Virus record (IMG/VR): IMGVR_UViG_3300018080_000105
Coordinates: 1 to 64,000 of that record
Length of the DNA stretch: 64,000 nt
Source: a virus
Strand: one strand, 5' to 3'
Shown here in pieces: positions 10,365 to 60,121 of this stretch. Each line of letters begins with the position of its first letter. The first letter of the stretch is position 1. The notes under the pieces were generated by a model. The model had not been told where the DNA came from. It searched no databases and saw nothing but the letters and a program-made list of their open reading frames with translations. Both the position numbers and the translations under genes were made by a program.

Positions 10365-10837
10365 ATCGACTCTCGTGGGAATGTGTTAAACCGGAAAGAC
10401 CATTCACCAAGTTGCAACTCAGGGTTCGACACGTTCAACGACAACCCGACCAGAAATGATCGGTAAACCGTTGTTCCAAAACTTACCAGTACCGGGGCGG
10501 CTCTTGTTGCGATCCGATTCACACGGTATCGCTCCAGCACCTGTTCCATACCGCTCTCCCCGCCGCTACAAGGGTTCGCAAAACAGATCCCTGAGACAGT
10601 CAGCTCTCCGATGCGGTCACCGAAGATGTATGCGTAGATCGTCTCACTGACAGTGTGCAGGAACTGAACGTTTCCTTTTTCGTTGATACTGGCAGACGTA
10701 ACAATCGCATTGACGTTCTGAGAACCAATGCCCACGCCTTGCATCAGAACACGAAACGGCAGTACGCCACCGCCTCCGCCGTTCTGGCTAGTCACGCGAA
10801 CTACCGCGCCACGGTCATGTGCAAAGAAAGCTGGCAT
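10361..10837 (-). CDS. Tail tube initiator / tube-fold baseplate protein
   Basis: Directly after the tape measure; beta-rich (YIFGDRIGELTVSG...FLVGLSLNV...WSFRF) like gp48/gp54/gpU-type proteins. Confidence 0.5.
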   Translation of the reverse strand: MPAFFAHDRGAVVRVTSQNGGGGGVLPFRVLMQGVGIGSQNVNAIVTSASINEKGNVQFLHTVSETIYAYIFGDRIGELTVSGICFANPCSGGESGMEQVLERYRVNRIATRAAPVLVSFGTTVYRSFLVGLSLNVSNPELQLGEWSFRFNTFPRESI

Positions 10838-28794: not shown

Positions 28795-29724
28795 TCACGC
28801 GAAGTCCGCCCGCGCCAGGCCGCCAGAGTGGCCAATGGAGCCACCACAGGTTTCATAGCTGAAGAACTCCAGCATGTAGGCCTCGCGTCTCACGTACATC
28901 GTTGTATCCTCCAGAAGGTAGGATTTCCCGATGAACTTGGGGTCTGCGAACATGAACATCGTGTCATCTGGGACCAAGTCTCGCTTGATCGTGATGATCC
29001 ATCGCATGTTCATGAATTCGGTTTCAGCCCAGCCGTTCTTGACGACGTCCTGGCTGAAGTCACCACCCATTTCGTCACGACCGAACTTCTCGACTTCCTT
29101 GATCGTAACGTTGTTGATCAGTGCTGTGTGAGCTTCCAGATGGCTTGGCCCACGAGGCATGATCTTACGGGCGTCCTGCAACGTCTCACGAGTGATACCA
29201 CCGGAGATCGTTTCCCACTGCACAACGTTGCCGTTGTACGGTACAGGAGTGTCCGGGCCGATCATGGCCTGATTCACGGCAGACAGGAATTTGCTGTCTT
29301 CCTCTGCCAGCATATCCTTGATGGAGTTATCCGACAGAACCTGTCGAATGTCCATCACCCAGGTACGCAGCTCGTCAACGTCTTTGACGAAGCGAGGGGT
29401 AACGATGCGGTCGAACATCACGCGGTAGCGAGGACCACGGATGTACACGTTCGACGGCAGAGTTGCGAACGGGATAGAGATGGCTGCCGGTGAATCCGGT
29501 TCCTTGTCGACGATCTTCACTGGCTTGTCAGTGTCGTACTGACGGTCCAGTTCGTCGTTGCTGATTTGCAGCGGGGGAAGGATTCGACGGTAAACGCCAT
29601 CTTCCCGCATGGTTGTGCGGGTGAAGTCGTTGACCGCGTCGATAGCCTGTTTCTCCATTCCAGGAGTGTTGAGCTGCTCAAACAGTGTTTCGTTGAGCAT
29701 GTCGATTTCGGCACGAGTCGCCAT
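28795..29724 (-). CDS. Major capsid protein, HK97 fold (309 aa)
   Basis: Follows protease, scaffold and decoration genes; backbone-helix pattern RIVTPRFVKDVDELR...DIRQVLSDNSIKDMLAEEDSKFL; strong GGAGG RBS; EKQA at residues 24-27. Confidence 0.85.
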   Translation of the reverse strand: MATRAEIDMLNETLFEQLNTPGMEKQAIDAVNDFTRTTMREDGVYRRILPPLQISNDELDRQYDTDKPVKIVDKEPDSPAAISIPFATLPSNVYIRGPRYRVMFDRIVTPRFVKDVDELRTWVMDIRQVLSDNSIKDMLAEEDSKFLSAVNQAMIGPDTPVPYNGNVVQWETISGGITRETLQDARKIMPRGPSHLEAHTALINNVTIKEVEKFGRDEMGGDFSQDVVKNGWAETEFMNMRWIITIKRDLVPDDTMFMFADPKFIGKSYLLEDTTMYVRREAYMLEFFSYETCGGSIGHSGGLARADFA

Positions 29725-31015: not shown

Positions 31016-32455
31016 CTACTTACCGTACGCCATCATCTCCTGAATGTGGCTTTTCAGATGGTTACGCAGCTGACGCTCCGTGGTGCCATCTTCGGCGGCC
31101 TTTTGCTCGTACTTGCCCTGGCGTTTGAAGTCCTGGACAGCCTGAGCGATTTTCATACCTTCGGTCATTTCCGGAGGAGCAGGTGCTCCACCTTCCATCG
31201 GAGGCATGTTGGCGTCCGGGCCGGCAAGACCAGCTGGAGCACCTTCCAGACCGCCACCTTCGAGAGGAGCTTCCGCGGGAGCACCGGCACCAGCCAGTTC
31301 TTCCAGAGGAATACCCAGTTCTTCCAGGGCAGCCACCAGCTGCATCAAAATCTCTTCCTGGGAAGCCCCGGCAAGTGGATCTCCACCGCCTTCGGCCAAC
31401 GGGTCACCGCCAGCCATGGGATCTTCACCGATAGCAGGAGCTGCTTCTCCGCCGCCTATCAGGCCGCCGAGATCACCACCGCCTCCGAGATCTTCCTCGC
31501 CGCCGCCCGCGGGGGCACCTTCTGCAGGAGCGGCCTCAGACTCCCCCGGCGTTTCTCCCCCGGCACCTTCAGCTTCGCTGGCGCCCGAAGTTACATCACC
31601 GGCTTCGTCATGGTCTTCACCGTCAGCAGCGTCAGCAGCCTGCTTGTTGAAGCCAGTCAGGTAGTTGCCGAGAAGCTCAGCATCCAGACGGGCATCTTCG
31701 AGCACGGCAGCAATCTCGTTGCCAACCAATTCCTGAGCAGCTTGCTTTTCGATGCCGAGCTGAGCCGCGAGCTGGTAACCAGCCGCCAGATCAGCGTCGA
31801 CTTCTTCGTTGCCACCTTCAGCAACAGCAGCCGCAGCTTTTTCAATCAACTGAGAAGTCTCAGTGATCTCGTTGGTGTCGGCAGCAGGAGCAGCGTCAGC
31901 CGCTTCCTTGGTTGCAGCTGGTGCGGGCTGTTCGGTCAGTTGATTTCCCTGACCGGTTGCCAGGTCCGCGAGGATCGAGTTTGCCAGCTTCGTATGAACT
32001 GACAAAGAATCCTGCAGACTCAGACTGGCATACTTGTGCCCGTCAAGCGAGTCGTTGTCGGTGCGAGCCGGGTGAGATGATCCAGGATCATCTTTGCCAC
32101 CCTTGTAGTCGTCCTCTGTCCCAGGGTCTTCCCCGGTGGCCGACTGGTTCGTGCCGATGTTCAGCTGGACATCGTCCTGCTGGCCAGGCTTAGCATCGGA
32201 AGCCTGATTGACTCCCGGAGCGCCCTGGTCTTTGTTGACATCGGCGGTGTGTTCGGATCCGCGAGAACCTTCCGACGCTTCCTGGCCGCGGTTGTCCACG
32301 TCCTTGGTCGCGTGAGTGGTTGCTCCCTGGTATCCACCGGGATCATCCGGCGTTGGGGTTTCTGCTGCTTTCTCAGCAGCAGCTTTTTCCTGGCCGTCGA
32401 TCGGCTGAACGAGTTTGTTCAGAGAATCAAACAGGCTTTGGGTCTGTGTACTCAT
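31016..32455 (-). CDS. Prohead scaffold/core protein (479 aa, acidic, low complexity)
   Basis: Between protease and capsid genes; largely disordered; at least nine K-x-A motifs. Confidence 0.7.
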   Translation of the reverse strand: MSTQTQSLFDSLNKLVQPIDGQEKAAAEKAAETPTPDDPGGYQGATTHATKDVDNRGQEASEGSRGSEHTADVNKDQGAPGVNQASDAKPGQQDDVQLNIGTNQSATGEDPGTEDDYKGGKDDPGSSHPARTDNDSLDGHKYASLSLQDSLSVHTKLANSILADLATGQGNQLTEQPAPAATKEAADAAPAADTNEITETSQLIEKAAAAVAEGGNEEVDADLAAGYQLAAQLGIEKQAAQELVGNEIAAVLEDARLDAELLGNYLTGFNKQAADAADGEDHDEAGDVTSGASEAEGAGGETPGESEAAPAEGAPAGGGEEDLGGGGDLGGLIGGGEAAPAIGEDPMAGGDPLAEGGGDPLAGASQEEILMQLVAALEELGIPLEELAGAGAPAEAPLEGGGLEGAPAGLAGPDANMPPMEGGAPAPPEMTEGMKIAQAVQDFKRQGKYEQKAAEDGTTERQLRNHLKSHIQEMMAYGK

Positions 32456-37371: not shown

Positions 37372-37794
37372 TTATCCGTTCAATGCCGACGGTTCAATCA
37401 ACAGGCTGAGGCCGTAGGTTTCCGTCCCAGAACCTCCACTGTTGATACGCATCCACAGCCGCCGTACAGGGTTTGTCGGCGTGCCGTCTCTATTGATGTA
37501 AGGGTAGTCTACCGCCGCCCGGTACGCCCCGCTCGTAATGGACACTTGTCCATTCGTAATCGAGTGCGCTTCCGGGTCACCGCCTTCCGTGGCAGAATCG
37601 GCAGACGAGCCAGCTGTCGCCATCGCCGCTACTTCGGAATCATAGATCTCGAAGTTGCCGGCGTCGGTGCCAGAGAGCTGTTTCAAATTGATCTGTTTGA
37701 TCGTCCCACGATGCGGCACATCAAGTCGCACGATCTCTTCCTGTCCAGCCTCGACAGAAAACTGAACAGGGCCATAACCCCATTGGTTACTCAT
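37372..37794 (-). CDS. Small beta-rich putative virion protein (~140 aa; start moved to MSNQW)
   Basis: ATG overlaps the HNH stop; jelly-roll-like composition with a SSADS loop. Confidence 0.6.
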   Translation of the reverse strand: MSNQWGYGPVQFSVEAGQEEIVRLDVPHRGTIKQINLKQLSGTDAGNFEIYDSEVAAMATAGSSADSATEGGDPEAHSITNGQVSITSGAYRAAVDYPYINRDGTPTNPVRRLWMRINSGGSGTETYGLSLLIEPSALNG

Positions 37795-38518
37795 GGTCGG
37801 TTCCCCAAAAGATGTTGAATTCGTCAGCGGCCTGCGCGATCTTGATAGCCATCTCAGGCGGGAGTTCAGAAAGGTCTTTGGCGCCCTTCTGCGAGTTGCA
37901 GACACGGCACAATGTAACAGCGTTGCCTGGTCGAAGGCCGTGCCCCTTGGACAACGGCTTTACGTGGTCAGTACACAGACTACGCTGACTGTTACAGTTC
38001 ACGCAGGCCGGCTGCGACTCCCGGAGAGCCTGCTCCATTTCAAGAGTCCACGCGGCATCCAACTGCTGTTTCCTTTCCATCCTCTCGCGGACTTTCATAC
38101 GAGCATACGCAGGCGTCCTTGACTGTCCGTGCGTGCTATTAACCGCACTAGCCCGGCTCCGCTGATAGCACCCGCAGGACTGTGTGTGCCCGTTGCGGAG
38201 CTTGGCAGCCATCACGGCAATCTCACGACCACAGTCACAAAGACATGGCCAGAAATTATTTCCAGGAGCAGGCCGGCGAAGAATCATCAGCCGACCGTAA
38301 CGAGCACCTACTACGAGACGCGATGGCAAGTTGTCCAAGTGCTCTCTCAGAACACAACCACAAGACGTGATCTTGCCCTGCTGGAGGTCCCCAGACCTGA
38401 TCGACTTCTCATTACCGCAGGTACAAACGCATAACCAATACACGCCCTTCCGCGAGGTGTCTCGCTGAAGGACGGTCAGCCGTCCATATCTTCGTCCTGT
38501 GCGGTCAATGAGTTTCAT
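37787..38518 (-). mobile_element. Free-standing HNH homing endonuclease with duplicated N-terminal DNA-binding repeat
   Basis: Two GxRYGRLxx...WxCxCxCG...SCGC repeats; HNH core CVNC...TDHVKPLSKG...NAVTLCRVCNSQK. Confidence 0.88.
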
Positions 38519-41043: not shown

Positions 41044-42939
41044 CTACGGGGTCGTTTTGTTAGTGTCAAGATCCTTCCAGCCCTGGGTTGCTCCATGCTC
41101 CCCAAAGCCAGCTCCGTGGGCCAGGGCCGGCACATAGCTGGTCCCGCCCTCGTCCGATACAGCACCTCGTCGGGCGCCTTCCAAAAGACTGTTTTTCTGG
41201 TAACTACCCAACATCCTGGTCATCCAGTCCGGGTCATGTGCCGCATTCGACATTCCCCGAATCATTTCCGGCTGAAACGGAGGAGGCTCGGTATGTGCGT
41301 AAATCGACCGAACTCCGTGTTTCTGCAGATGTTTTACCATCGAAGGCTGGATCTTGGTACCCACGGAATAATGTAGGACGGGTCGTTCGAGATATTTTCC
41401 TGCTGCCTGGTTCGGTGTAATGACCGCGTGGCCCTCACGCGGTTTCCACTGTCGCTCCAGTAATTGGTAAGGAACCACATCATCCTGGACCCAGTCACCC
41501 ATCTCTTCGGTGAGCCTGACATGGTTGATCAGGCCCCGAGAAAGCAGCTCGATATTACGTCGGTGACCACGTGTTCCCATACCGTCAAGCGTGTCGCGGA
41601 ATGCCTTCACAAAGTACCGTCGACCTTCTCCGACGCCTTTATGCTTTACGACTTCGGCCGGGTTGGGGATTCCTTCGGAGATAACATCTCCGGCTTCGAC
41701 CGTGTCACCCTTTTTGACTTTGAGCTCGTAGCCGTGACCAACATAGTGGTCTTCGTTCCCAATGTGGACGTAGTGTCCGCCCTGCGGAGCTTCTCGCACA
41801 GAGTGCACAGTCCCGTCCAACTGAGCATGTGCCGCACCCGCGGCGAATTTCTTAGGGACTTGCACCAGCTGGTTGATGAACTGGAAACCTGAGATGGCAC
41901 CCGCCCCTGCTCCCGCCACGCCCCCAGAATGCTTTGAGGAAATTTGGGCCTGCGTGATCGGTTCCGCGAGTGCCTGGGCCGCGGCAATACCAACATAGTC
42001 ACCGATTGGCGACAATCCTCCACGTTCGCGATATCCCAAATCACGGGCATAAACTCCGCCGTCCTGCGGCCCGCCCACGGTCGGACTGCGAACAAGTATT
42101 TCATCAATGCCATCAGCTTCCAGCTCTTTCAAAATCTTCGGTGTCAGGACCGTATTGCGTTTGTACCCGCCGATCGGGTGCGCCAGCAGTGAACCAGCTG
42201 TATCTGAGTCGTTCGTATTTACCGGCAAACCGCGTGGCGTAGATTCGTCGTAGGGATCGTCATCATCGTCTGACGTAACCAGCAGGCGATGAGTTGCCTG
42301 CACGAGCTGCTTTGCCAGGAATCCGGCATCCTGTGTCGCACTCTTCAAGTCCTGAATCCCTTTCCTCGCACCGAACGCCCCGGCGAAATACTCATAGGGC
42401 TTCAGTCCCATGGAATAACTGCGAAGCACAGGAATCGGCAATGCGTTGCCGCGGTGGTCGGTGTACAGGAGGTCAGCTCCGCGAAGAGAATTCAGATTTA
42501 CGCTGTTACCCCGCGAACCAGACTGTACCTGCATTGCAAGCGGGTTGCCTTCGTCCTTGGATTCCTGCAGGACATCTTTGTGCAGCTGTCCCTGATATTT
42601 CTGCACAGCGAGCAAGACTGCGGTGTCCTTTTGTTCGTCAGACATGTTGGACGAATAGATCTTGTCCAGTTCCTTCTGCATCTTCATCCGCATCTGCCGC
42701 CCAGCCAGTGACTGTCGCAGAGATTTCAATCCAAATGAATAGCCACCCTCGGAGAACGAAGCATCCCGCCCAATGTCAGACAGGCGTTTGGCGACTTCGC
42801 GATATTTATCCGGGTGTTTATCGGCTACTTCCTGGAGCAAAGCACGGATGCCTTTCTTGTCCAGTACCCGGTCGTGGTCGACCAAGTCTTCTGGCAAGAC
42901 ACTGTTGATCCAGAGTTGTCCAAGAGTCGTTTCCAGCAT
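41044..42939 (-). CDS. rpoC: Two-barrel RNA polymerase, beta' C-terminal subunit (bridge helix, trigger loop)
   Basis: ETTLGQ (TTxGR); bridge helix GARKGIQDLKSATQDAGFLAKQLV; trigger loop AAAQALAEPITQAQISSKHSGG; C-terminal LLEGARRGAVSD. Confidence 0.93.
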   Translation of the reverse strand: MLETTLGQLWINSVLPEDLVDHDRVLDKKGIRALLQEVADKHPDKYREVAKRLSDIGRDASFSEGGYSFGLKSLRQSLAGRQMRMKMQKELDKIYSSNMSDEQKDTAVLLAVQKYQGQLHKDVLQESKDEGNPLAMQVQSGSRGNSVNLNSLRGADLLYTDHRGNALPIPVLRSYSMGLKPYEYFAGAFGARKGIQDLKSATQDAGFLAKQLVQATHRLLVTSDDDDDPYDESTPRGLPVNTNDSDTAGSLLAHPIGGYKRNTVLTPKILKELEADGIDEILVRSPTVGGPQDGGVYARDLGYRERGGLSPIGDYVGIAAAQALAEPITQAQISSKHSGGVAGAGAGAISGFQFINQLVQVPKKFAAGAAHAQLDGTVHSVREAPQGGHYVHIGNEDHYVGHGYELKVKKGDTVEAGDVISEGIPNPAEVVKHKGVGEGRRYFVKAFRDTLDGMGTRGHRRNIELLSRGLINHVRLTEEMGDWVQDDVVPYQLLERQWKPREGHAVITPNQAAGKYLERPVLHYSVGTKIQPSMVKHLQKHGVRSIYAHTEPPPFQPEMIRGMSNAAHDPDWMTRMLGSYQKNSLLEGARRGAVSDEGGTSYVPALAHGAGFGEHGATQGWKDLDTNKTTP

Positions 42940-42944
42940 TCGTA

Positions 42945-43196
42945 TCAGCCAGATTTGATCTGAGGTTGCCCCGGGGCATTAACGTCGATGACTGCGACCG
43001 TCTTATCGATACCAAGGTTACGCAGTACCTCGTTGAACTGTCGCTGCGTAGATTCCTGTGCAGTCTCTGCGATGATCAACTCATCTCCAAGTTCTGCGGC
43101 GACGGCGATCGGATTGTCGAACTTATCAAGAACAACGACCCGAGTGACTTCTTTGGTTGTGAAGTCGCCCAGGCCATTGTGAAACATGATCTTCAT
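42945..43196 (-). CDS. Small hypothetical protein inside the beta' split (83 aa)
   Basis: TGATG-coupled to the upstream gene. Confidence 0.65.
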   Translation of the reverse strand: MKIMFHNGLGDFTTKEVTRVVVLDKFDNPIAVAAELGDELIIAETAQESTQRQFNEVLRNLGIDKTVAVIDVNAPGQPQIKSG

Positions 43197-43879
43197 CAGA
43201 CCTGCGTCCTCTGCCGCATAATTGCCGCCACAGCCGCAGCCCCGGTCTCGGGGTCGTAGTTGTTGAGAACATCACGCACAGTCAACTGTGCTGCCTTCTC
43301 GCCTCCGCCCCCGGCCAAGCCGGCCTGCATCGGGTTAATATCTGGAATCGGTCCACCGCCGTCATCCGCTGGAGCCATTGCAGCTCCCGGATCCTGCGGC
43401 CCGCCAGGCACTGCCGCTTCCGCGACAGGTGTCGGCGAGCCTGGAGGTGTGATCAGGGCACCCGGATCGAGCTGAATGCCCTGTGCGTTCATAATAGCCG
43501 TCAATTGTTGCTGCAGATTGTACAACCTGAAGTCCAACATCTGCATCATTTGCTCGGGCTTCATTTTTGGCGGGGCTGCTCCAGCACCGCCGGCGGCAGC
43601 TGCCGCCGGGTCGGCTGGAGGAGCGGCACCAGCTGCCATCGCTGGGTCCATCGCACCACCGACCATAGCTGGATCAACAGGAGGCGCCGCTCCGGGCATT
43701 GCTCCAGCCATTGCCGGGTCCATCGGGGGCATGCCGCCTGCAGCCGCCATAGCCGGGTCCATCGGGGCGCCGGCGGGCGCTGCAGGAACGACTGCAATCT
43801 TTTCCATTGAAGGACCGCCTTGATCCTTCCACACACGATGCTGCGCGAGTTCAAGAAGAGCAGGGTTGTAACCGGTCAT
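43196..43879 (-). CDS. Pro/Ala/Met-rich low-complexity protein inside the beta' split (227 aa)
   Basis: PMDPAMA-type repeats bracketed by MEKIAV and GEKAAQ. Confidence 0.7.
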   Translation of the reverse strand: MTGYNPALLELAQHRVWKDQGGPSMEKIAVVPAAPAGAPMDPAMAAAGGMPPMDPAMAGAMPGAAPPVDPAMVGGAMDPAMAAGAAPPADPAAAAAGGAGAAPPKMKPEQMMQMLDFRLYNLQQQLTAIMNAQGIQLDPGALITPPGSPTPVAEAAVPGGPQDPGAAMAPADDGGGPIPDINPMQAGLAGGGGEKAAQLTVRDVLNNYDPETGAAAVAAIMRQRTQV

Positions 43880-44487
43880 CAGTTGATCTCCGAATCAGAT
43901 TGGCACGGGCATACGCCGTCATTCATCTTCTTGCCGAAATTGCAATTTGCGCACAACGTCTGCAGAGTATCTGGGAAACCATTCTGAATAGCCCAACGAT
44001 ACAAGTTCGTGGGACCGATTTCCTTCCGGTGAAGATACCCGTCATCGTTCACATGGTCAATTTGTAAGAAATACTCGCGAGTTTCGCCACAGCAGACGCA
44101 TTTCCGTCCGTAGTGATCAAAGACTTGTGACTTCTGCCGCTGATACCGCTCAACCTTCTTGGCCTTGCAGCCCAAGCAGTAAACTCCCGTCTCTACCGGA
44201 GTAGTACAGGTCGGACACAGGCCGGCTTCTCTCCAGGCTGCTCTCCGTTCGTTACTGTTCCGCTGCTGGCTCTTGGCACAGACGGCGCATCTTACACGCC
44301 CAGCTCGGGGTGAGCGAACCCCGCAGTTGACACATTTCCCCGAATTCTTCCGCCGTTCTCGCCGGTCCCTGGATTTCGCCTTGGCGATCTCCGCACAGGC
44401 AGGGCACAGAGCCTTGTCGGTCGGAGTCTCGCACTCAGTGCACTGACCCGCAGCACGACGCCGCCTGTATTGCATGAGGGAAGCCAT
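43879..44487 (-). mobile_element. HNH endonuclease with multiple CxxC zinc fingers
   Basis: CTEC, CPAC, CVNC, CAVC, CPTC, CLGC; HNH core CVCC...LQIDHVNDDG...LQTLCANCN; single-base overlaps with both neighbours. Confidence 0.85.
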
Positions 44488-47400
44488 TATTTCTCCATGA
44501 TCTTGACCCGCCGACCGACGCCGATCTTGCCCTGTTTGTAGGCTTTGACCGCATCCTGGACAGTGGCGAAAGTGGCGGGGGCGTTCTTCTTGTCCTGCTG
44601 GGCCGAGGCTTCGTAGAGGCCTCCGATATATTCTTGGGAAGGTAAAAAATGTACGCCAAAAGAAGCTGCGCTAAACAAATTCCTGGATGGCAACATTTTC
44701 TGCAGCGCCTCTTCCTTCGCGTCGTCGTCCAGCGGGACGTGATACTGCATGGCGTCCCCGTCGAAATCTGCACCAAATCCGCCCACCACGAGAGGACTAA
44801 TCTTCAAAACGGTGCCTTTCACCAGCCGTGGACGGGCTGCCATGACACCATACCGGTGCAACGTGGGAGCCCGGTTGATCACCACCACGCCACTTTCCAT
44901 CTCGTCCATCATGGCTTTTCGAGCTGTCGGGGTCTTATCTTCAACAGCCCGAGCAGCATCCACACGACTCATACCGCGTCGCACCATCCGGCGAATCATC
45001 GTCGGGCGATAGATCTCCCAGGCTGTCTCTTCCGGAATACCCACTTGATCCATATCGAGGTCAGGGTCCGGGGCAATCACTGAACGACCAACCATGTCTG
45101 TAGAGGAACCCAGCAAACGACGCTGAACCGTCCCGGTCTTTGGGGACGATCCAAAGATGTGTTTCAGAATTCCTTTGACCTTCCGCTCCTGATTCTTTGG
45201 GTGCGTCGGATCACCGAGACCTGTCACGGCTTTGAACGCCTCGTATGTTGCGAGACGTTCATCACCAATATCCTCTTCGTCAAGCTGTTCAGACAACTGC
45301 TTCAGATTGTTGTTTGCATCCCACAGCTCTTTGTAGAGATAGTTCGGGTCCGCAACGAGTGGTAACTTCTTCGCACCCATCGTCGACACCGGACGAAACG
45401 CCGGAGGCAAAACAGGGGCGCGCTTCAGCACCCAGTCTCGCGGATGGATGTTGAGACGCTTTGCACTCTTCAGATATCCGAGCCGGCGGACCGCTTTGTC
45501 TCGGTGAGTCTTCTTCCCGCTGGCGATCTCAGCTCGTGCCCTCGCAATCTCCTTGTCGAGTTCGAGCCCGTTGAGTGCGGCGGCAACAGCGCCCGGACCG
45601 ACACGTCCGTTGAGCTTCTCGCGGCCCGCCAGAATGTCGTTGAACTTGTTCTTTGTCAGCCCCAGCAGCCGCCTGATCGGTTCCTCCATCACAGGGTTCG
45701 GCATGGGTTCCGCAAGTTTGATCGCTGCCCATCGGTTTCCTCCTCCATCGGCGGTTTGGTGCCCGCCAGTCAGCGACTGGTCAAAGAGTCCGCCTTTTGA
45801 CGGCTCCATCGTCTTCCAGTCTACGGTTTCAACATTCTTCAATTCGCGTTCGCCAGCCAGTTCATCAACGTCCTTGTCGGTGAGTGCCATGATATGCACT
45901 TTGTCACCGTTGCGGACCACGTTGATCCCTGACGCTTTCAGACTGTTCACGAACTTACGGTACACATGCGGCACCTCCGGAGTCGGAGGTTTGAACCCGC
46001 TCATATACTGTGCCCAGTAATCCGGATTGGCCTGGCCCCGGATGATGCTGCCGTCTCGAACCACCGATGTAGCTCCGTGTGACAGCAGTGCGTTTGTTTC
46101 CAACATCCCGACACGTTTAGCGCCAGTCTTCCCGCCCTTCGCCGGCGTACGCTCGGCGGTGTATGAGCCAATGCCGCGACCCTGCGCTTTGGAATCAGCT
46201 GTGTGGTGCAGCTTCATCACCCAACGATTACCGGTGAAGATGTCATTCACCTTCCGGTCGTTGGTTGGGTCGATGATTGTCTCCGTGTCTTCCAACCCGG
46301 CTTTCTGAAGTTCGCGTAACGCGAACTCGATCATGTCTTCCTCGTCCTGGAAGTCTGGAACCTTGAATGGCTCACCACGTTTGGCCGCGATCTTTCCAAG
46401 AGCAGCTTCCACAATCTGAGCAGGATTGGTACGGCTGATGACACCCAACGGGTTAAGCAACAGATCGTAGGCTTTGCCATCCTGGTCGGTCGGCATTTGA
46501 TCGTCGGGAATGACGTGGCTGATGATCCCTTTGTCGCCATACCGTCCGCTCAGCTTGTCGCCGACCTTCATTGGGATAGATGCCTTCACAACCACCGACG
46601 CACCCTTCGGCGTCTGGACTACATCAATCACTTCGCCATCGTAGTCGTGGTCCCACTTTAGACTGACGTCCTGAAAGCTGGGCTTCCCACCTTTCAGCAG
46701 ACTCTTCTTGTTTCGTTCCTTTTCACGCGCCACCAGGATCAGTGGGTCGCCTTCTGAGACTTTAGTACCGGGCTTTACCACACCTTCATCGTCGAATCGC
46801 TCCAGAATGTCGCGCCCGTACTTCGACGGAAAGATCGACTGGAACGATTTACGTCCGCGGTGGTCACTCTTCTCCCAGTCATGCGAGTTCTGGTAAGTGT
46901 GCTGCGACGACATTCGCTTCGCGAACGATGCACTGATGACATTGGCATCTTCAAAGTTAAGGCCACCCCATGGAACGTACGCCACACGGGCATTCATTCC
47001 GAGAGCAGTAGTACCCTGTTCGTCTGTGAAGTTAGAGCGCGCCAGCAACTGTCCAGCCTCAAACTGATCACCAGGTTGGACAGTGGCTGTCTGATGCAAG
47101 CTGGTCTTCCGATTGAACGGGAAGTTGTTGTACAGAGGTAGCTCTGCCTTTTTCCCGTCGGCGTAGCGAACCTTGATCCCGTCCGGCGACACCGCTTCAA
47201 CCACCCCTGGCTGGTCAGCGTGAAGGGCGCCCATCTTGTCGGCATACTCTTGCTCGAAGCTGCGACCCTCAACGCCGGGCATCCCTGATTGCACGAGAGG
47301 AGCCTCGGCACCATCCAACGGCATAGCCTGCGTAAGCATTCGTGCGGCCATCACCGCTCGCTGCCCCTTCACCATGGATTTCATGGGGATCATGTTGCCG

Positions 47401-48914
47401 AGAGGACTGAACGTGTCCTCCATATCGGGCACCTCGAAGTCAACCTGTGACTTGTTGACGGTGCGGACCTTGCCGCGAACCAGCGCTCGCACAAAGTCCT
47501 GATCCTTATTCATCTCATTCGGGAACGCTACCACAGAGTCCGCAAAGTCTCGCGGCGATTTGTACACGGTCTGACCGTCCAGTGTCTTCACTGGCGTGTA
47601 CAGTTGTCCGTCTTCCCCTTTGACCGCTCCACGGGCTAATCGCACATCCACGCCAACCTTGCCGCTCTCCGGGGTCCGGAGGAAGTCGATGAAGCCGAAC
47701 TGAGATGGCTGAACCGCGCGGCTCTCGTCCGGGATAGCGTCCAGCGACGTGATACCGCCCTCGCCCATCCGCGTTACACGAGACTGCTGGTCGTACACCT
47801 CGGCCGGGTTGATCTCTTCCAGCGGAGATGCCAGCCCGGAACTCATGAGCGTCGACATCACCGTGTCCTGGTAGGGACTGGTCGCCAAGTTGTCGAGATT
47901 CTTCCGCGGCGTTGCCTTCCACAGCATCTGCCGGGCCACGTTCTTAGCTCGCGACAACCGATCAGCAAACAGGTCTTCGGGACCGTACAGCTTCTGATAA
48001 GCCAACGCGTCACGGTCATCCTCTTCGTCTTCGTCTTTCGCCACACGGATCAGTTTACGGGTGACTTCCAACAGCGTGTCCGCATTGACGTTCTTTACCC
48101 CACGGCCCAGTGTTCGCTGCGTCACCTCCGGATCCAGTTCCATCTCTTCAAACGACTTCACAACAGCAGCCACCTGCCCGAGATCGTCGGCAGTGCCGTT
48201 GCGGTGCAACTTTTTGTACAGCTTACCGATCGCACCTTTGTCGAGCTTCTTCATATTCTCGGCGGTCAGCTCGTTACCCCAGGCCTCTCGCAGCTGCCGG
48301 TCTTCGACACCCATAGCCTTCAATAACGGCATCAGCGGAATACGAGCCTGTCCCATCTGAATGCGGAACACACCGGTCGCGGGGTCGAGGTACAGACGAT
48401 GGCCGTACCCTTTGGAGACATTGACGTGGCTCTCGATCTCGCCGTTGCTCTTCCGGCGAGTGAAGATGCCAGGCCGCAGCCGGGCCTGGTGAGCCATTGT
48501 GTACTCGTTACCGTTCAAAATGAACGTGCCGCGCTGGGTCATGTACGGGACCTTCGCCAGCTGCATGCTACGGCGGGAGACCTCGTTGCCTTCCAGATCT
48601 CGCAGCACGGCATCACCAGTCAGCTTCCTCGCGAGAGTCCCGCGGGCCAGCAAGGCCTTCTTCTGCGCAGCAATGTCGTAGCTGTCCGGCCCGGCCCATC
48701 GCGGGTTTTCGATCGCCAACTGATACTGAGAGTTGCTGACTGGCTCAAACGACTTCGCTGCGGCCAACACGTTGTCAAAAATCATTTGACGCGTACGGGC
48801 GGCGTCTCCGAACCGCCGAAAGTTCCCCGGCCCAACCGCCGGAGCGGGAGCCACTGGAGTTGTCGGCGTCGGTGCGGGTTCTTGATCGTCCAGAATACTG
48901 GGATCAGGCCGCAT
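44487..48914 (-). CDS. rpoB: Two-barrel RNA polymerase: full beta fused to beta' N-terminal half including the catalytic DFDGD
   Basis: Beta motifs YMTQRGTFILNG, RTPESGKVG, NFEDA, GDKLSGRYGDKG, LLNPLGVISRTN, KLHH...GAKRVGMLE; beta' motifs GGLFD, PVLPPAFRP, GRSVI, NRAPTLHR, GADFDGDAM, PSQEYIGGLY. Confidence 0.96.
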   Translation of the reverse strand: MRPDPSILDDQEPAPTPTTPVAPAPAVGPGNFRRFGDAARTRQMIFDNVLAAAKSFEPVSNSQYQLAIENPRWAGPDSYDIAAQKKALLARGTLARKLTGDAVLRDLEGNEVSRRSMQLAKVPYMTQRGTFILNGNEYTMAHQARLRPGIFTRRKSNGEIESHVNVSKGYGHRLYLDPATGVFRIQMGQARIPLMPLLKAMGVEDRQLREAWGNELTAENMKKLDKGAIGKLYKKLHRNGTADDLGQVAAVVKSFEEMELDPEVTQRTLGRGVKNVNADTLLEVTRKLIRVAKDEDEEDDRDALAYQKLYGPEDLFADRLSRAKNVARQMLWKATPRKNLDNLATSPYQDTVMSTLMSSGLASPLEEINPAEVYDQQSRVTRMGEGGITSLDAIPDESRAVQPSQFGFIDFLRTPESGKVGVDVRLARGAVKGEDGQLYTPVKTLDGQTVYKSPRDFADSVVAFPNEMNKDQDFVRALVRGKVRTVNKSQVDFEVPDMEDTFSPLGNMIPMKSMVKGQRAVMAARMLTQAMPLDGAEAPLVQSGMPGVEGRSFEQEYADKMGALHADQPGVVEAVSPDGIKVRYADGKKAELPLYNNFPFNRKTSLHQTATVQPGDQFEAGQLLARSNFTDEQGTTALGMNARVAYVPWGGLNFEDANVISASFAKRMSSQHTYQNSHDWEKSDHRGRKSFQSIFPSKYGRDILERFDDEGVVKPGTKVSEGDPLILVAREKERNKKSLLKGGKPSFQDVSLKWDHDYDGEVIDVVQTPKGASVVVKASIPMKVGDKLSGRYGDKGIISHVIPDDQMPTDQDGKAYDLLLNPLGVISRTNPAQIVEAALGKIAAKRGEPFKVPDFQDEEDMIEFALRELQKAGLEDTETIIDPTNDRKVNDIFTGNRWVMKLHHTADSKAQGRGIGSYTAERTPAKGGKTGAKRVGMLETNALLSHGATSVVRDGSIIRGQANPDYWAQYMSGFKPPTPEVPHVYRKFVNSLKASGINVVRNGDKVHIMALTDKDVDELAGERELKNVETVDWKTMEPSKGGLFDQSLTGGHQTADGGGNRWAAIKLAEPMPNPVMEEPIRRLLGLTKNKFNDILAGREKLNGRVGPGAVAAALNGLELDKEIARARAEIASGKKTHRDKAVRRLGYLKSAKRLNIHPRDWVLKRAPVLPPAFRPVSTMGAKKLPLVADPNYLYKELWDANNNLKQLSEQLDEEDIGDERLATYEAFKAVTGLGDPTHPKNQERKVKGILKHIFGSSPKTGTVQRRLLGSSTDMVGRSVIAPDPDLDMDQVGIPEETAWEIYRPTMIRRMVRRGMSRVDAARAVEDKTPTARKAMMDEMESGVVVINRAPTLHRYGVMAARPRLVKGTVLKISPLVVGGFGADFDGDAMQYHVPLDDDAKEEALQKMLPSRNLFSAASFGVHFLPSQEYIGGLYEASAQQDKKNAPATFATVQDAVKAYKQGKIGVGRRVKIMEK

Positions 48915-50232: not shown

Positions 50233-50442
50233 TCAACCTGAACAGTTACTGTAGCTGATCGGATCCGTTGATGTGATCACACGCATTTGAGCGGTGAGCA
50301 ACGATACACGCGAGTTGCAACCGTGACCGGAGAGACGCACTTCATGCGAATCGCCGGAGACGGCCTTCACAACCCCACGCTTGTTGCGGTACTCAGAGTT
50401 CTGGTCAGTGACCAGGACTTTGTCATCCACACTGTGGGCCAT
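50233..50442 (-). CDS. Stand-alone KOW/SH3-like protein, paralogue 2
   Basis: VDDKVLVTDQNSEYRNKRGVVKAV...EVRLSG; GGAGG RBS. Confidence 0.6.
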   Translation of the reverse strand: MAHSVDDKVLVTDQNSEYRNKRGVVKAVSGDSHEVRLSGHGCNSRVSLLTAQMRVITSTDPISYSNCSG

Positions 50443-50492
50443 GATTGCCTCCAGAAAGAAAAGAGATCGTAAGCAGCAAACGCTGCCGTCGA

Positions 50493-50699
50493 TCAGTAAG
50501 TGATGGGTGAAGCGTGACCCGTCGTGTGCAGTTCGCTGTCACTCAGCCCAACGGTTTTCCCGACAGCATAGCCATCAAGACGAACCTGGTTGAGAGAGTT
50601 GGGATCAGCGGCAGCCGCAATTTCAACCGTGCCGAGTTTGCCTCGCCATGGTGATTTTTGACTGGTCACTTTGACACGGTCGTCAGCATTGAACGCCAT
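50493..50699 (-). CDS. Stand-alone KOW/SH3-like protein, paralogue 1
   Basis: FNADDRVKVTSQKSPWRGKLGTVE...QVRLDG...VGLSDSEL; GGAGG RBS. Confidence 0.6.
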   Translation of the reverse strand: MAFNADDRVKVTSQKSPWRGKLGTVEIAAAADPNSLNQVRLDGYAVGKTVGLSDSELHTTGHASPITY

Positions 50700-54618: not shown

Positions 54619-56391
54619 TCAGAATTCGTCGCGAACAATCTTCTGGAGAATCTTGGAAACTCCGTCAGTGCCTTTGACGATCTCTGGTTCCCCCGTACCT
54701 CCAACGGGGTAGACGACGATCTGCGGCAATTCTTTGAACCGAAGTCCCTTGCCTTTCACGTCGTACAGGACGATGGCTGGATACTTGGCCTTGGCAGCTT
54801 CGTACTCACCCTTCATTCTGTTCCAATGGTCAGCGGAAGTATCCGTTACAAGTACCATGTGGTCAACGCCAGTGCTCTGCTGGAGCGCCCAGAGGACAGA
54901 AACGTCAACGTAGGCGGGACTGATGTAACGCCCTGATTCGACTTTGAGCGTGACGGCCGCCTCTGATGGATTATCCCGAAGCTCCCGTACCAATTCCAAA
55001 ATCTTAACCTGGTTTTCCTGAAGCCCCTGAATGCCCTGTAGCAACGATTCATGCTCACCGCTGGGTGCCGATAGCTTCCCAGACAACTCGTCCTGTTTAT
55101 CCGCCAGTCCCTGGATCAGTTTGATTAACTGCTCGTGATCCCTTCTCAACGAGTGCTGGTTCTCGATAAGCACGTTGATCGGATCCAATAGGCCAGGAGC
55201 CGGTGTCGGATTGTTGGCCGGCGGGCCTGTCGGCGTGTCCGGGTTGCCAGAAGGCGGATTGCCTGATGGCGGGGTGTCCGGCACAGAATCCGGGACAGGT
55301 TCAGTAACAGGTTCCGAAGGAGGAACAACAACGGGCTGCTCACCACCCAAATCTTCCGTGGGATGCGGGAAAACTTGCGGAGGCGGCGACTGCGGGCGGC
55401 TTCGAGGCGGCTGCGGCGAAACAGGGCGACGTGGCTGCGCGCGAGGCTGAGGATAGTATGGGTAGCATGGTTGCGACGGATAACACGGCTGACAACTCGG
55501 GGATGATGGCGGACAACACCAGGCATACGTTTCACTGACCTTCGTTCCGAGGAACGTTGTGATCGTGCCGGCATAGGTCCCTATCGATCCAGAGGAGTCC
55601 CCGCCCCAGAACACACCAACCAGTTTTCCGTTCGTATCGAACATCGGGCCGCCACTGTCACCTCTACGAAGATGACCAGACGCCACCAGCAACTGATTGT
55701 TGCCGCTCGTCACAAACTGATGCGAAGGGTGTCCCGGAACAAACTTACCAGGCGAGTCCGCTTTGTAGCCGGCGGAAGTGTAACCTTGCAGCGCGCCAAA
55801 GTGTGCCCGGTAAATGTTGCGTGTCCCGCCGAAACCCGCCACGCCAATGTTAGGCTCTTTATCTGGATCAATGATCTTCGTATTGATCTCCATCGGGACA
55901 GTGCCTTTAGGAGCATACACTGCCAACGCACACAAATCATTTTCCCAGTCAAGCGCCAGCACCTTGGCACTTGACCGCATGCCTTTGAACTCTGCGACCG
56001 GTTTCTGCGATTCGGCACATTGAATATCACCGCACTCAAAGATGTGAGCGCACGTCAGAATGACCGCGGTGACCCGTCCATCTTTTTCCGGACGAGTGGC
56101 GATAACCGTCCCAGTGCCCAGCGAACGAGTCCTGGTCATGTGCAGCCGCACGACCGAACTACGAACGCGATTGTACAGCGCAACCGCTTCTCTATCGCTC
56201 GCCTTCGGAGACCACACGGCACCGCCCGAAGCACGGTTACGCGCAACCTTGTAACTGCGCGTCGGGGAGTTCGGATCCTGTGGGACCCGAAACACATGAA
56301 ACCCTTCCGGATTGAACTTCACCGGGAGGGCGGCATAGGTCTGTGACACCAGCATGACCACTGCCACGAGAACGCTGAAAATCCGTTTCAT
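54619..56391 (-). CDS. Secreted trypsin-like serine protease with Pro-rich linker, coiled coil and C-terminal domain
   Basis: Signal peptide; catalytic triad ILTCAH, NDLCAL, GDSGGP. Confidence 0.88.
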   Translation of the reverse strand: MKRIFSVLVAVVMLVSQTYAALPVKFNPEGFHVFRVPQDPNSPTRSYKVARNRASGGAVWSPKASDREAVALYNRVRSSVVRLHMTRTRSLGTGTVIATRPEKDGRVTAVILTCAHIFECGDIQCAESQKPVAEFKGMRSSAKVLALDWENDLCALAVYAPKGTVPMEINTKIIDPDKEPNIGVAGFGGTRNIYRAHFGALQGYTSAGYKADSPGKFVPGHPSHQFVTSGNNQLLVASGHLRRGDSGGPMFDTNGKLVGVFWGGDSSGSIGTYAGTITTFLGTKVSETYAWCCPPSSPSCQPCYPSQPCYPYYPQPRAQPRRPVSPQPPRSRPQSPPPQVFPHPTEDLGGEQPVVVPPSEPVTEPVPDSVPDTPPSGNPPSGNPDTPTGPPANNPTPAPGLLDPINVLIENQHSLRRDHEQLIKLIQGLADKQDELSGKLSAPSGEHESLLQGIQGLQENQVKILELVRELRDNPSEAAVTLKVESGRYISPAYVDVSVLWALQQSTGVDHMVLVTDTSADHWNRMKGEYEAAKAKYPAIVLYDVKGKGLRFKELPQIVVYPVGGTGEPEIVKGTDGVSKILQKIVRDEF

Positions 56392-58456: not shown

Positions 58457-60121
58457 TCACCTTAGTCCAAGAACAGAGCCAGTTACACCGCGAATCATAC
58501 CGCCCCACAATCCCATGTTCTGCAACTTCTTCTGGGCTTGTGGTTTGAGACCGCCAAGAACTCCAAGAACGCCACCCGCGATATGTGCCGTCGCCAAATC
58601 CACGCCGGCTGTCGCCAACCCGCGAATGAAATGCCGCGGCGACAACATCGACGGATTACCATGTAGTTGCTGCACGCCGGTAACCAGTCCGGAAGCAGCC
58701 GCTGCGTGCATCGGTGGAGTGTGGCGACCAGCATCACCCCAAATTGCACGATTAAACGCGTCAACCGGGACAGACTGTAACGCTACCCCGCGACTGCCCG
58801 TGTACCCACTGGAGTTCACTGCGCGTTTAATTCGGTTGACACTTTTCTCAAACTGATCGGACGCTGTGAGTCCCAACGTGTCGAGGTAATCCAAAGCCTG
58901 CTGCTGCGCGCTGGCCTTGTAGTGATTCATATAATCAATTTCGCTCGGAGCGATGTTCTGCTGCGTGACCGGCTGCAGGAATGACTTCCGCCACTGCGGC
59001 TTCCCGGTCGCGTTCTGGTTCATCTGTGCATTAGCCAAGCCTTGTGGGACATGTAAAGCCGCGCCGCCAAGCCCGCCGAGTATCGCCAGGTTCCGTCGCA
59101 GTTTACCGCGTTCCAGGTACTCTTCTGGCAGCAACTGCTCAGCAAGCCAGCCACCGCCGTAACCCAGCCCGGCGCCCAGCAACCCAGACACGATGGAGTT
59201 GGACATTGCCGAAGGCCCACCGGTCAGCTTACCCGCCGCACGGTATGGCAACCCCAGGTACTCCAGCGCAGAGGCTTTCTTGACCATGATCCAATTATCA
59301 GAGTCAGACGGGCCAACCTCAGATTCGGCGATGACTTTGTCGACCCCGTCGATCGAGTTGACGGCTTTCTCCCACTGCTCATAAACCTCTCGGCCGTCAG
59401 AGTCACCAAGCACGATCCACGCCGTCTTGTTTTCCGGATGCCAGTAAACGTAACCGTAACCAGGCATAGCCGGCAGATCTTTAATCGCCGTCTTTAGGGC
59501 GTCCCGGATGGCAGCCGCGAGCTTTAAGCGTTGGGTGACAAGTGCCGGGACCTGTCGCCACAGCGACAGTTCGCCCTTTTTTTCGATGCGTTTGATAGTT
59601 TCATCAGCCACGGTTTTCCATGCCCTCCTGGCGTCTACTGCGCGGTCGTCGAGATAGAGGTCCGCTACAACTTTGTCTGAGGCATCTTCCGGCTGGTCTG
59701 GGTTCTCGTTGATATGGTCGAACGGAATATCGTGTTCTTCCAACCAGCTGCGAACCAGTTTTTTGTCACCACGCACCGTGTTAATGATGATCTGATAACC
59801 CTCGTCCCGAAACCGCTGCATACTCTTCTTGGCGCCCGGCCTCGGCTTCTCGATCTTCTTCGGATCGAACTTGTCGTACATCGAAGCTAGCGTGCCGTCG
59901 AGATCTACAGCCACTGTGGGGAGTCGGTCCGCACGCGACTTCCCCGCAGCGGACTTTCGTCGCCCATCCAACACAGCACTGAGGCCGTCCAGCGGCAGAG
60001 AGGCTTCGGGGGTTTGTATGATCGTGGATAGTCGCGACATTGCGTTTCCCATGACTCCATGGCCTCTTTGAACCACTTCCAGAAAGCCGCGATCGCTCGC
60101 CGCCTTTGTTTGCTTCTCCAC
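58457..60121 (-). CDS. HAD-phosphatase / glycine-zipper multidomain protein; true start probably further upstream
   Basis: HAD motifs VAVDLDGTL, IINTVR, K, LYLDDR; C-terminal Gly zippers; K-x-A linkers; no Cys. Confidence 0.8.
   Translation of the reverse strand: MEKQTKAASDRGFLEVVQRGHGVMGNAMSRLSTIIQTPEASLPLDGLSAVLDGRRKSAAGKSRADRLPTVAVDLDGTLASMYDKFDPKKIEKPRPGAKKSMQRFRDEGYQIIINTVRGDKKLVRSWLEEHDIPFDHINENPDQPEDASDKVVADLYLDDRAVDARRAWKTVADETIKRIEKKGELSLWRQVPALVTQRLKLAAAIRDALKTAIKDLPAMPGYGYVYWHPENKTAWIVLGDSDGREVYEQWEKAVNSIDGVDKVIAESEVGPSDSDNWIMVKKASALEYLGLPYRAAGKLTGGPSAMSNSIVSGLLGAGLGYGGGWLAEQLLPEEYLERGKLRRNLAILGGLGGAALHVPQGLANAQMNQNATGKPQWRKSFLQPVTQQNIAPSEIDYMNHYKASAQQQALDYLDTLGLTASDQFEKSVNRIKRAVNSSGYTGSRGVALQSVPVDAFNRAIWGDAGRHTPPMHAAAASGLVTGVQQLHGNPSMLSPRHFIRGLATAGVDLATAHIAGGVLGVLGGLKPQAQKKLQNMGLWGGMIRGVTGSVLGLR

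Follow-up and report, generated by a model that had tools for sequence, protein, structure and literature searches.

A fused and split bacterial-type RNA polymerase core and a probable sigma factor of its own in a large uncultured phage

Architecture of the two RNA polymerase genes

The window analysed here, a stretch of 64,000 nucleotides of phage DNA, raises the question of whether a cellular-type multisubunit RNA polymerase (RNAP) is encoded as one chain that joins beta to the N-terminal part of beta' and a second chain that carries the rest of beta', and of how such an enzyme would be assembled and used. The original prediction of a phage-encoded, two-barrel enzyme with this partition is confirmed by Pfam and by mapping onto the E. 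coli subunits. Indeed, P0001 (44487..48914, minus strand) is a single ORF of 1475 amino acids that encodes a complete, compact beta followed by beta' from about residue 19 to residue 553 (E. coli numbering), with Pfam matches to Rpb2_6 (2e-52) and Rpb1_2 (2.5e-25) and weak ones to Rpb2_3 and Rpb1_1. P0002 (41044..42939, minus strand; 631 amino acids; Rpb1_5, 4.3e-18) spans beta' from about residue 569 to near the C-terminus, and the rpoC profile is aligned to it at positions 548-1050. The enzyme aligns with bacterial beta and beta' with E-values of about 1e-54 to 1e-67.

At the fusion junction (45900..45920, minus strand), residue ~1000 of P0001 corresponds to E. coli beta 1338 and residue ~1005 to beta' 19, so that the beta C-terminus runs directly into the beta' N-terminus, as had been claimed, without a linker domain. 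The further claim that both barrels and the catalytic Asp triad lie on one chain also holds: P0001 carries both double-psi beta-barrels and the clamp helices, the beta active-site lysines are conserved (K787 and K795, equivalent to E. coli beta K1065 and K1073), and the catalytic motif GADFDGD (44754..44774, minus strand) supplies D1383, D1385 and D1387 (beta' D460, D462 and D464). The first residue of this motif is G in 72 relatives and N in 34. The C-terminal residue of P0001, 1475, corresponds to beta' 553. The second chain opens, as predicted, at ETTLGQ; its N-terminus reads MLETTLGQ, residue 1 corresponds to beta' 569, just ahead of the TTxGQ motif, and more than 60 orthologues begin with MLKTTxGQ. 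In P0002 the bridge helix occupies about residues 188-221 and the trigger loop, whose His aligns with E. coli beta' H936, about residues 318-343; the chain has no SI3 and lacks the beta' C-terminal tail (E. coli 1386-1407). The fused and split core is almost certainly real and functional.

Sigma-family gene and possible virion packaging

A gene for a sigma-70-family factor, P0293 (7148..7954, minus strand; 268 amino acids), is also encoded in the window. It is a homologue of gp10 of Salmonella phage Arash (tblastn, 1e-13), a cultured phage that has the same RNAP layout, as do the cultured Vibrio phages D69, D148 and D181. In Pfam, Sigma70_r3 scores above its gathering cut-off (28.9 bits; cut-off 25.3), region 4 scores below its own (19.6 bits; cut-off 24.1) and region 2 gives no significant match, and NCBIfam sigma subfamilies are matched with E-values of 7e-7 to 4e-4. 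Each of the 50 best Foldseek matches is a sigma factor (E about 1e-7), and 230-260 columns of the fold model are aligned to sigma A, B and S with a probability of 1.00 and a low TM-score, the latter because the domain arrangement differs. Homologues of P0293 number 67, several of them on contigs equal in size to those that bear the fused RNAP. P0293 probably gives the phage RNAP its promoter specificity, and the pairing of this core with the phage sigma factor is likely.

The RNAP genes share a minus-strand block with head genes, and in Arash they lie next to the portal gene. The major capsid protein of the window phage (28795..29724, minus strand) was recognised by Arash gp226 (tblastn, 4e-34) and by phrog_2522, 'major head protein' (2e-6). 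In Arash virion preparations the RNAP orthologues belong to the most abundant proteins: Gp206 (3516 spectra, 100% coverage) is the most-detected virion protein, ahead of the major capsid protein, Gp216 is represented by 1210 spectra and the sigma factor Gp10 is covered at 100% (PMC10585845). Furthermore, P0001 and P0002 together contain no cysteine in 2106 residues versus 1.5% in the other ORFs (P about 6e-15); the Arash orthologues are Cys-poor, not Cys-free (1 and 4 Cys). From the Arash proteomics, the position in the head module and the lack of cysteine we infer virion packaging for this phage; the enzyme may well be both packaged and independent of alpha.

The same fused and split RNAP could instead be a non-virion enzyme, made after infection for middle or late transcription like the phiKZ nvRNAP, its presence in Arash particles being carry-over. 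The Arash authors themselves point out that proteins made in quantity during infection could end up as contaminants of virion preparations (PMC10585845), and the phage genome encodes only one RNAP set (a single match), which, in a phage that does without the host enzyme, must at least also work inside the cell. However, the first rank of Gp206 in the Arash virion proteome, the presence of sigma Gp10 beside it and the embedding of the genes in structural modules all argue against an exclusively intracellular role, which would moreover leave the conserved lack of cysteine unexplained; such a role is possible but doubtful.

Missing subunits and zinc sites

Across the entire 184-kb record, Pfam gave no match to alpha (PF01000) or omega (PF01192) at E<=0.1, which extends to the record the earlier remark that neither is recognisable in the window; all the control genomes were positive in the same search (14/14), the record is 89% complete, which leaves room for an absent gene, and Pfam would miss alpha- or omega-like proteins that have diverged strongly. 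In beta', segment 70-96 is absent, which deletes the first zinc site and its domain (ZBD; E. coli C70, C72, C85 and C88), and the second zinc site (E. coli C814, C888, C895 and C898) reads D, G, Y, D.

The missing alpha and omega genes and the clearly bacterial-type beta and beta' regions would also suit a core that still requires the host alpha dimer, and perhaps host omega, as its assembly platform, the phage giving the catalytic chains and sigma. Nevertheless, the phiKZ and AR9 enzymes need neither alpha nor omega for activity (PMC7598289), the fusion is an alternative means of holding beta and beta' together, and the beta' C-terminal tail is missing. In addition, interfaces specific to host alpha are unlikely to have been kept at 24-29% identity to any bacterial enzyme when the hosts range from Salmonella and Vibrio to those of sediment and other environmental phages. 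Dependence on host alpha is thus considered improbable.

Genes between the two RNA polymerase genes and origin of the split

P0001 and P0002 are not adjacent: they are 1.55 kb apart, and the gap is filled by three translationally coupled ORFs. These three ORFs, like the sigma-family gene, did not figure in the original RNAP observation. The first, P0124 (43879..44487, minus strand; 202 amino acids), is Cys-rich (19 Cys, several CxxC pairs) and is placed exactly between the P0001 stop and the start of gene X, with TAATG and TGATG overlaps; a DH..N..CxxC..N pattern at its C-terminus is HNH-like by eye, and no support for an HNH assignment was found in Pfam, PHROG, NCBIfam or PDB. Gene X (P0122; 43196..43879, minus strand; 227 amino acids) is Pro/Ala/Met-rich and largely of low complexity, with a strongly conserved central helix (KPEQMMQMLD..LYN..QQQLT); it is kept between the RNAP genes across the family and was matched by tblastn in 56 of the 82 related loci. 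Gene Y (P0123; 42945..43196, minus strand; 83 amino acids) is conserved immediately upstream of beta'C across the family. Its predicted model (pLDDT 84) has five strands and one helix and gave no fold match (Foldseek E>=0.38, VIA Z<=2.9); gene Y is not omega-like. If X and Y were extra subunits, which they could be, the two-chain description of the enzyme would be incomplete.

The surveyed relatives show how general the layout is. Family members occur on at least 571 IMG/VR contigs, and the best 150 clusters at 50% identity are all fused. The fused chain ends at the same residue in 266 of 267 relatives and includes beta'C in none of them, and in 71 of the 82 loci a beta'C gene follows downstream on that strand, most often after a gap of about 975 nt. 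The partition described as new in the original prediction is therefore real, but hundreds of phages share it: it is the norm in a very large metagenomic family and is also seen in the cultured phages Arash and D69. No paper describing or remarking on the fused and split layout was found in the literature.

The HNH-like ORF directly abuts the end of the fused gene, which recalls gene splitting by homing endonucleases, and a recent split of beta' by insertion of this putative mobile gene was considered. An annotated homing endonuclease does break the fused gene, at another place, in Vibrio phages D181 and D148, and an unsplit beta-beta' fusion exists in a sister lineage of the same phage clade (L005, a phage contig with 32% identity). 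Yet the split point is identical in the 266 relatives, in Arash and in D69, mostly without this HNH-like ORF, and the gap in relatives holds X and Y alone. Homologues of P0124 are present in only 2 of the 82 loci, at other positions, which points to an insertion specific to the window. The family survey all but rules out a recent HNH-driven origin, although an ancient mobile-element origin is possible. By the same comparisons, the beta' split is ancient and fixed in this phage lineage, and P0124 is a later entrant into the gap, in this phage only.

Independent assemblies and phylogenetic placement

A 60-kb Logan contig, probably from the source sample itself, shows 0 differences to window positions 41000-49000, and contigs of two other studies cross the fusion junction and the boundary between the stop and the HNH-like ORF. 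A 438-nt contig of an independent sediment metagenome (X2), 94% identical, crosses the junction gap-free. In the beta/beta' phylogeny, 28 bacteria from more than 15 phyla stand together on one side of a branch of 1.22 (SH-aLRT 100) in a tree of which mReC sequences were not part; Arash and Vibrio D69 fall with the window family and L005 in the same phage clade. Identity to cellular sequences reaches 24-29% at best, and a scan of 185,579 species genomes turned up no family member. With the 28 bacteria apart and identity at this level, the RNAP forms a clade outside these bacteria and is not a recent bacterial capture. The idea that the fusion and split are an assembly or frameshift artefact, or a recently captured host rpoBC, can be set aside almost entirely, as the arrangement is common to independent assemblies, to the relatives and to cultured genomes, the peptides of Arash Gp206 cover the whole protein and a long branch separates the family from bacteria.

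Proposed working of the enzyme

Taken as a whole, it is probable that this large uncultured phage encodes a two-polypeptide, bacterial-type multisubunit RNAP core and its own sigma factor, and that this enzyme is packaged and alpha-free. Chain 1, with compact beta and beta' ~19-553, holds both barrels and the clamp helices together with the beta lysines and the Mg-binding Asp triad, and chain 2, from beta' ~569 to the end, the bridge helix, the trigger loop and parts of the jaw and cleft. The covalent link between beta and beta' would replace the assembly platform of the alpha dimer, which is absent from the phage, and the enzyme would have dispensed with omega, both beta' zinc sites, the inserts SI1 and SI2 of beta and SI3 of beta', and all cysteines. 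Promoter specificity would be provided by the sigma-70-family factor. The RNAP would be produced alongside the head proteins, taken up into the capsid and then ejected together with the DNA, allowing early genes to be transcribed independently of the host RNAP; since only one RNAP set is encoded, the same enzyme may serve later stages too.

Comparison with known systems

The N4 virion RNAP and gp66 of crAss-like phages offer a functional analogy only, namely a large RNAP that travels in the particle and serves early transcription. The N4 enzyme is a T7-like single-subunit RNAP. The crAss-like gp66 and YonO enzymes have both barrels on one chain, a likeness that is again analogy only; unlike the window RNAP, they have no HMM-detectable similarity to COG0085 or COG0086.

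The mReC polymerases (Weinheimer & Aylward 2020), as here, belong to uncultured tailed phages and have alignable cellular-like beta and beta' outside the cellular clades. However, all listed mReC contigs carry separate genes for beta (about 900-1560 amino acids) and beta' (about 900-1390 amino acids), selection required beta and beta' proteins of >=800 amino acids and an NADxDGD motif in beta', and no fusion or split was described (PMC7481178). As the window RNAP is fused and reads GADFDGD, the suggested membership of this lineage is unsupported by architecture.

The phiKZ/AR9-type enzymes of jumbo phages are likewise phage-encoded, two-barrel RNAPs without alpha or omega, and exist as virion and non-virion sets, one of which is packaged in the virion (PMC7598289, PMC7824862). 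Membership of this type was rejected: their beta is in two to three pieces and never fused to beta', they have two paralogous sets and no sigma-family factor, and their sequences are far more diverged from cellular enzymes, whereas the window phage has an unsplit and fused beta, a single set and a sigma homologue. The earlier statement that they are split differently is accurate for beta but not for beta', whose split right after the DPBB, near the one seen here, is reported to coincide with the cyanobacterial one (PMC7598289).

In cyanobacteria and plastids, beta' is cut into gamma (rpoC1) and beta'' (rpoC2) a short way past the catalytic barrel, on the same part of the surface. In cyanobacteria beta has a gene of its own, and the enzyme keeps alpha, omega and its zinc sites. 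The cut falls at another residue: the end of P0001 lies at position 551 of the gamma profile, which has 619 positions, and residue 24 of P0002 corresponds to position 5 of the rpoC2 profile, placing the phage split ~20 residues plus a loop upstream of the gamma/beta'' split, in agreement with the original prediction; with beta fused in addition, the phage layout is not the cyanobacterial one.

Complete rpoB-rpoC fusions (Helicobacter and Wolbachia, NF007172 and NF011417; Paceibacterota MAG L133; L005) share the direct beta-beta' join, but their beta' is continuous in one chain of about 2300-2900 amino acids, versus a cut at beta' ~553/569 in the window. The bacterial rpoBC fusions coexist with alpha and omega. 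P0001 was rejected as a complete fusion, since its beta' stops at ~553 and its scores are far under the cut-offs, the best NCBIfam match being NF007172 (353 bits; cut-off 5372), with NF011417 at 283 (cut-off 4632).

The same fusion and the same split point are found in Arash, with gp206 (1525 amino acids), gp216 (606 amino acids) and sigma gp10: P0001 58-1472 aligns with gp206 35-1524 and P0002 5-613 with gp216 7-599. In the annotation of Arash, gp206 is simply called 'beta' and the fusion goes unmentioned (PMC10585845). The Arash and Vibrio proteins share only about 25-31% identity with those of the window and are not strictly Cys-free, 4.8 kb and nine other genes separate the two RNAP genes of Arash, and D69 has two unrelated small ORFs where the window family has X and Y. 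Arash and Vibrio phages D69, D148 and D181 nevertheless resemble the window phage in having a sigma homologue, in their major capsid protein, which is homologous, and in genome size (~180-187 kb), and the window phage presents the Arash-like layout of a chain of ~1450-1530 amino acids ending before TTxGQ and a beta'C of ~600-650 amino acids.

Partition of the RNA polymerase genes

The fused beta-beta'(N) protein (P0001) is encoded at 44487..48914 on the minus strand by a single open frame of 1475 aa, and the beta'(C) protein (P0002) at 41044..42939, also on the minus strand, by a single open frame of 631 aa. In P0001, Pfam recognises domains of beta (Rpb2_6 at 2e-52 and, weakly, Rpb2_3) as well as of the N-terminal part of beta' (Rpb1_2 at 2.5e-25 and, weakly, Rpb1_1); in P0002 it recognises Rpb1_5 (4.3e-18). 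In a PDB sequence search, (i) bacterial beta, nearly to its C-terminus, pairs with P0001 ~78-1028 (E down to 1.4e-67), (ii) E. coli beta' 160-550 pairs with P0001 ~1086-1472, and (iii) residue 563 of a 1188-aa beta' pairs with P0001 1473, and residues 577-1083 of the same protein with P0002 2-482. In the alignment with E. coli RpoB and RpoC, P0001 1000 corresponds to beta 1338 and P0001 1005 to beta' 19; by this alignment, the join of beta and beta' is direct, without a linker domain. At the split, P0001 1475 corresponds to beta' 553 and P0002 1 to beta' 569, so that about 15 loop residues are lost. The residues beta K1065/K1073, beta' D460/462/464 (GADFDGD) and the trigger-loop His are all kept. 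On the basis of the ORF coordinates, the Pfam matches and the PDB and E. coli alignments, the description of a fused and a split gene in the original prediction is therefore correct.

The window comes from an IMG/VR virus record that is 184,021 bp long and 89% complete. Over 41000-49000, a Logan contig obtained independently from the probable source sample, a sediment metagenome, shows 0 differences. Two further studies contribute one contig each: one of 438 nt (94% identity) crosses the fusion junction gap-free, and one of 151 nt crosses the P0001 stop together with the start of the adjacent HNH-like ORF. No RNA data set is among the public runs listed as containing the sequence. The independent contigs agree, and the partition is not an artefact.

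Conservation of the partition among relatives

Beta and beta' Pfam domains are present in one protein in all of the 120 top-ranking clusters at 90% identity, whose identity over the junction half is 59% or more. The same holds for all of the 150 top-ranking 50%-identity clusters (E<=1e-157) in a search with the 575-aa junction-spanning part of P0001 as query. All but one of the 267 fused proteins end within 40 residues of the P0001 end position, and none (0/267) contains beta'(C) sequence. The beta'(C) gene lies downstream on the same strand in 71 of the 82 fetched loci, with a modal gap of about 975 nt, and more than 60 beta'(C) genes start with M-L-K-T-T-x-G-Q. In environmental metagenomes this clade is highly abundant: an alignment-based scan recovered at least 571 contigs from IMG/VR. 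This type of scan was needed, a single-sequence scan of IMG/VR having given two loci only.

Among cultured phages, the same layout is found at about 30% identity in Vibrio phage D69 and in Salmonella phage Arash, where gp206 has 1525 aa and gp216, encoded 4.8 kb from it, has 606 aa. The partition is thus not peculiar to this phage, and the survey of relatives, proposed originally as a check, gave a constant fusion and a near-constant split point (266/267). An IMG/VR contig (L005, 32% identity) encodes one 2646-aa ORF in which beta' is continuous across the split region, with a LAGLIDADG intein after DFDGD. The layout of Arash and D69 and the full fusion in L005 indicate that the beta-beta' tether is common to the whole clade; of the three branches sampled, two have the split. 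In Vibrio phages D181 and D148, the fused gene is broken into ORFs of 514 aa and 1006 aa (D181, L002 7941-13455), between which lie two very small ORFs and a gene annotated as a homing endonuclease. This may be a recent break associated with the endonuclease, or an intron; the D69 gene (L171 8941-13524) is intact.

Inteins abound in this family, with 258 insertions exceeding 100 aa among the 267 fused proteins and a hot spot directly after the catalytic DFDGD (38 insertions). Recurrent intein sites lie, in P0001 numbering, at ~420-440, 600, 650, 790, 830, 910-930 and 1260, and intein-bearing entries include, among others, P0005, P0007, P0013, P0022 and L005:14021-16003. P0001 itself is intein-free. 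The fused RNAP family is a rich intein reservoir within a single essential gene.

Genes within the beta' split

P0001 and P0002 are 1.55 kb apart, and the three ORFs between them are translationally coupled: P0124 (43879..44487, minus strand; 202 aa, 19 Cys), X (P0122; 43196..43879, minus strand; 227 aa, Pro/Ala/Met-rich) and Y (P0123; 42945..43196, minus strand; 83 aa). P0124 has an HNH-like motif pattern without profile support: no significant match was obtained in Pfam, PHROG or NCBIfam, the PDB sequence search gave zinc-finger noise only, and there is no significant similarity to the bona fide HNH gene of the window. Among the 82 fetched loci, homologues of P0124 occur in just two others, at different places; P0124 is therefore an insertion specific to this phage, in a gap that already existed, and did not cause the split.

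X orthologues of 203-307 aa and Y orthologues of 68-95 aa occupy the gap in relatives. Vibrio phage D69 has two small ORFs that are unrelated to Y. Neither X nor Y has a significant Pfam or PHROG family match. The structure model of Y is confident, yet without a fold relative (best Foldseek E 0.38; best VIA-align Z 2.9). An assignment of Y as omega was dropped because Y is mainly beta-strand.

The bona fide HNH endonuclease (37787..38518, minus strand; Pfam HNH 1e-7, phrog_374 4e-36) follows the 818-aa gene downstream of beta'(C), and in the related locus L006 an HNH gene comes immediately after beta'(C). Upstream of the RNAP block, a trypsin-like peptidase is encoded (54619..56391, minus strand; Pfam Trypsin_2 at 2e-12), and L006 has Trypsin_2, Peptidase_M10 and Band_7 genes at this position. 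The KOW paralogues proposed at 50233..50699 have no Pfam match at E<=0.1.

Missing modules, phage sigma factor and candidate promoter

Several segments of the E. coli enzyme have no counterpart here: in beta, residues 228-345, 938-1049 and 1124-1177; in beta', the zinc-binding segment (70-96), residues 152-173, SI3 (945-1131) and the C-terminal tail. At the second beta' zinc site the residues are D/G/Y/D. The prediction that alpha and omega are not recognisable in the window holds for the whole 184-kb record (89% complete), in which no Pfam match to alpha, omega or sigma region 2 and no second RNAP set were found.

Cysteine is absent from both P0001 and P0002 (0-1 Cys in nearly all intein-free relatives); the remaining ORFs of the phage average 1.5% Cys, and the absence has P ~6e-15. 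Three more large ORFs are Cys-free (10837..14478, 1213 aa; 31016..32455, 479 aa; 58457..60121, 554 aa; all minus strand), and these three may encode proteins that are ejected as a set. The 1213-aa ORF lies near the position of the virion cell-wall hydrolase gp8 in Arash, in a block whose ORFs 2950..4554, 4554..6191 and 7148..7954 match Arash gp14, gp13 and gp10.

The ORF 7148..7954 (minus strand) encodes a probable sigma-70-family protein, with Sigma70_r3 over the gathering score and matches to several NCBIfam sigma subfamilies. The best 50 Foldseek matches of its model (pLDDT 83) are all sigma factors, it is homologous to Arash gp10, and several of its homologues sit on contigs equal in length to those carrying the fused RNAP.

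A 12-mer, GTAAATARGAAC, usually followed by C, has 15 exact copies in the 184-kb record (0.0 expected). Copies in the window are located at 4351 (plus strand), 27723 (plus strand), 40185 (minus strand) and 42222 (minus strand, one mismatch), and, in coordinates of the whole record, at 65390, 82442, 96187, 111180, 115607, 119764, 137327, 149769, 160439, 168400, 170721 and 183436. Four copies lie 4-20 nt ahead of start codons. Two close relatives keep the 40185 copy, in frame and at an identical codon position of their orthologue of the 818-aa gene, with differing flanks; distant relatives lack it. The TAAATA core is reminiscent of the T4 late promoter, and the 12-mer may serve the phage sigma/RNAP as a promoter.

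Proposed mechanism and significance

No cellular multisubunit RNAP is known to do without an alpha-like platform, and the known exceptions are limited to the highly diverged phiKZ/AR9 enzymes. In the present enzyme, the tether would probably stand in for this platform and the phage sigma would probably confer promoter specificity. Packaging of the RNAP into the capsid, which we infer for this phage, is suggested by the virion proteome of Arash, in which Gp206 is the most-detected protein and Gp216 and Gp10 are present (PMC10585845), by the location of the RNAP genes in a block with head genes, including that of the major capsid protein (28795..29724), and by the absence of Cys. A possible, if rather doubtful, joint reading is that of a self-sufficient bacterial-type RNAP made of two catalytic chains and a phage sigma, without alpha, omega, zinc or cysteine, carried inside the capsid and passing through the tail together with the DNA; X (disordered) and Y (a new small fold) would either serve specifically in assembly or packaging or be new subunits, GTAAATARGAAC would be the promoter, and the clade would form an independent old two-barrel branch in which tethering replaced the alpha platform.

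The clade can still be aligned to bacterial RNAP residue by residue, and with its subunits re-cut, without alpha or omega, without either zinc site and without any cysteine, it represents a natural experiment on the minimal bacterial-type core. Since Arash is cultured, alpha-independent assembly, sigma pairing, rifampicin sensitivity and the packaging and ejection of a core of ~230 kDa are directly testable.

Comparison with cellular and phage RNA polymerases

Among 185,579 prokaryote species (one genome each), only ordinary rpoB-rpoC loci were found, at 24-29% identity; these being cellular rpoBC only, they provide no host clue. An LG+G4 tree (51 rows, 1938 columns) places 28 bacteria from more than 15 phyla on one side of a branch of length 1.22 (SH-aLRT 100) and the window family, Arash with D69, and L005 on the other, and as this tree is unrooted and long-branch effects were flagged, 'deep-branching' is not separable in it from 'fast-evolving'. 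The clade does not nest within these bacteria, and a recent bacterial capture, the alternative raised by the original prediction, is excluded. Helicobacter and Wolbachia are not alone in having a complete beta-beta' fusion: in a CPR bacterium, a Candidatus Paceibacterota MAG, one 2284-aa ORF covers rpoB as well as rpoC (L133:163-7014).

No description of the present partition was found in the literature covered, mostly other than subscription journals. The 'moraphage' paper (PMC12619734) was discarded as a relevant precedent, as it reports no RNAP genes. The Arash paper labels gp206 'beta' (PMC10585845), and current annotation names the fused protein merely 'beta'. Membership in the multimeric-RNAP-encoding Caudovirales (mReC), suggested originally, is not supported by architecture, since beta and beta' are separate genes in those contigs (PMC7481178) and fused here. 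As anticipated, the split falls just before the cyanobacterial one, which lies about 20 residues into P0002. The phiKZ-type enzymes, expected to be split differently, indeed have a split beta and no sigma (PMC7598289, PMC7824862), in contrast to the fused beta and sigma homologue found here, but the position reported for the split in their beta' is the cyanobacterial one, close to that between P0001 and P0002 (PMC7598289).
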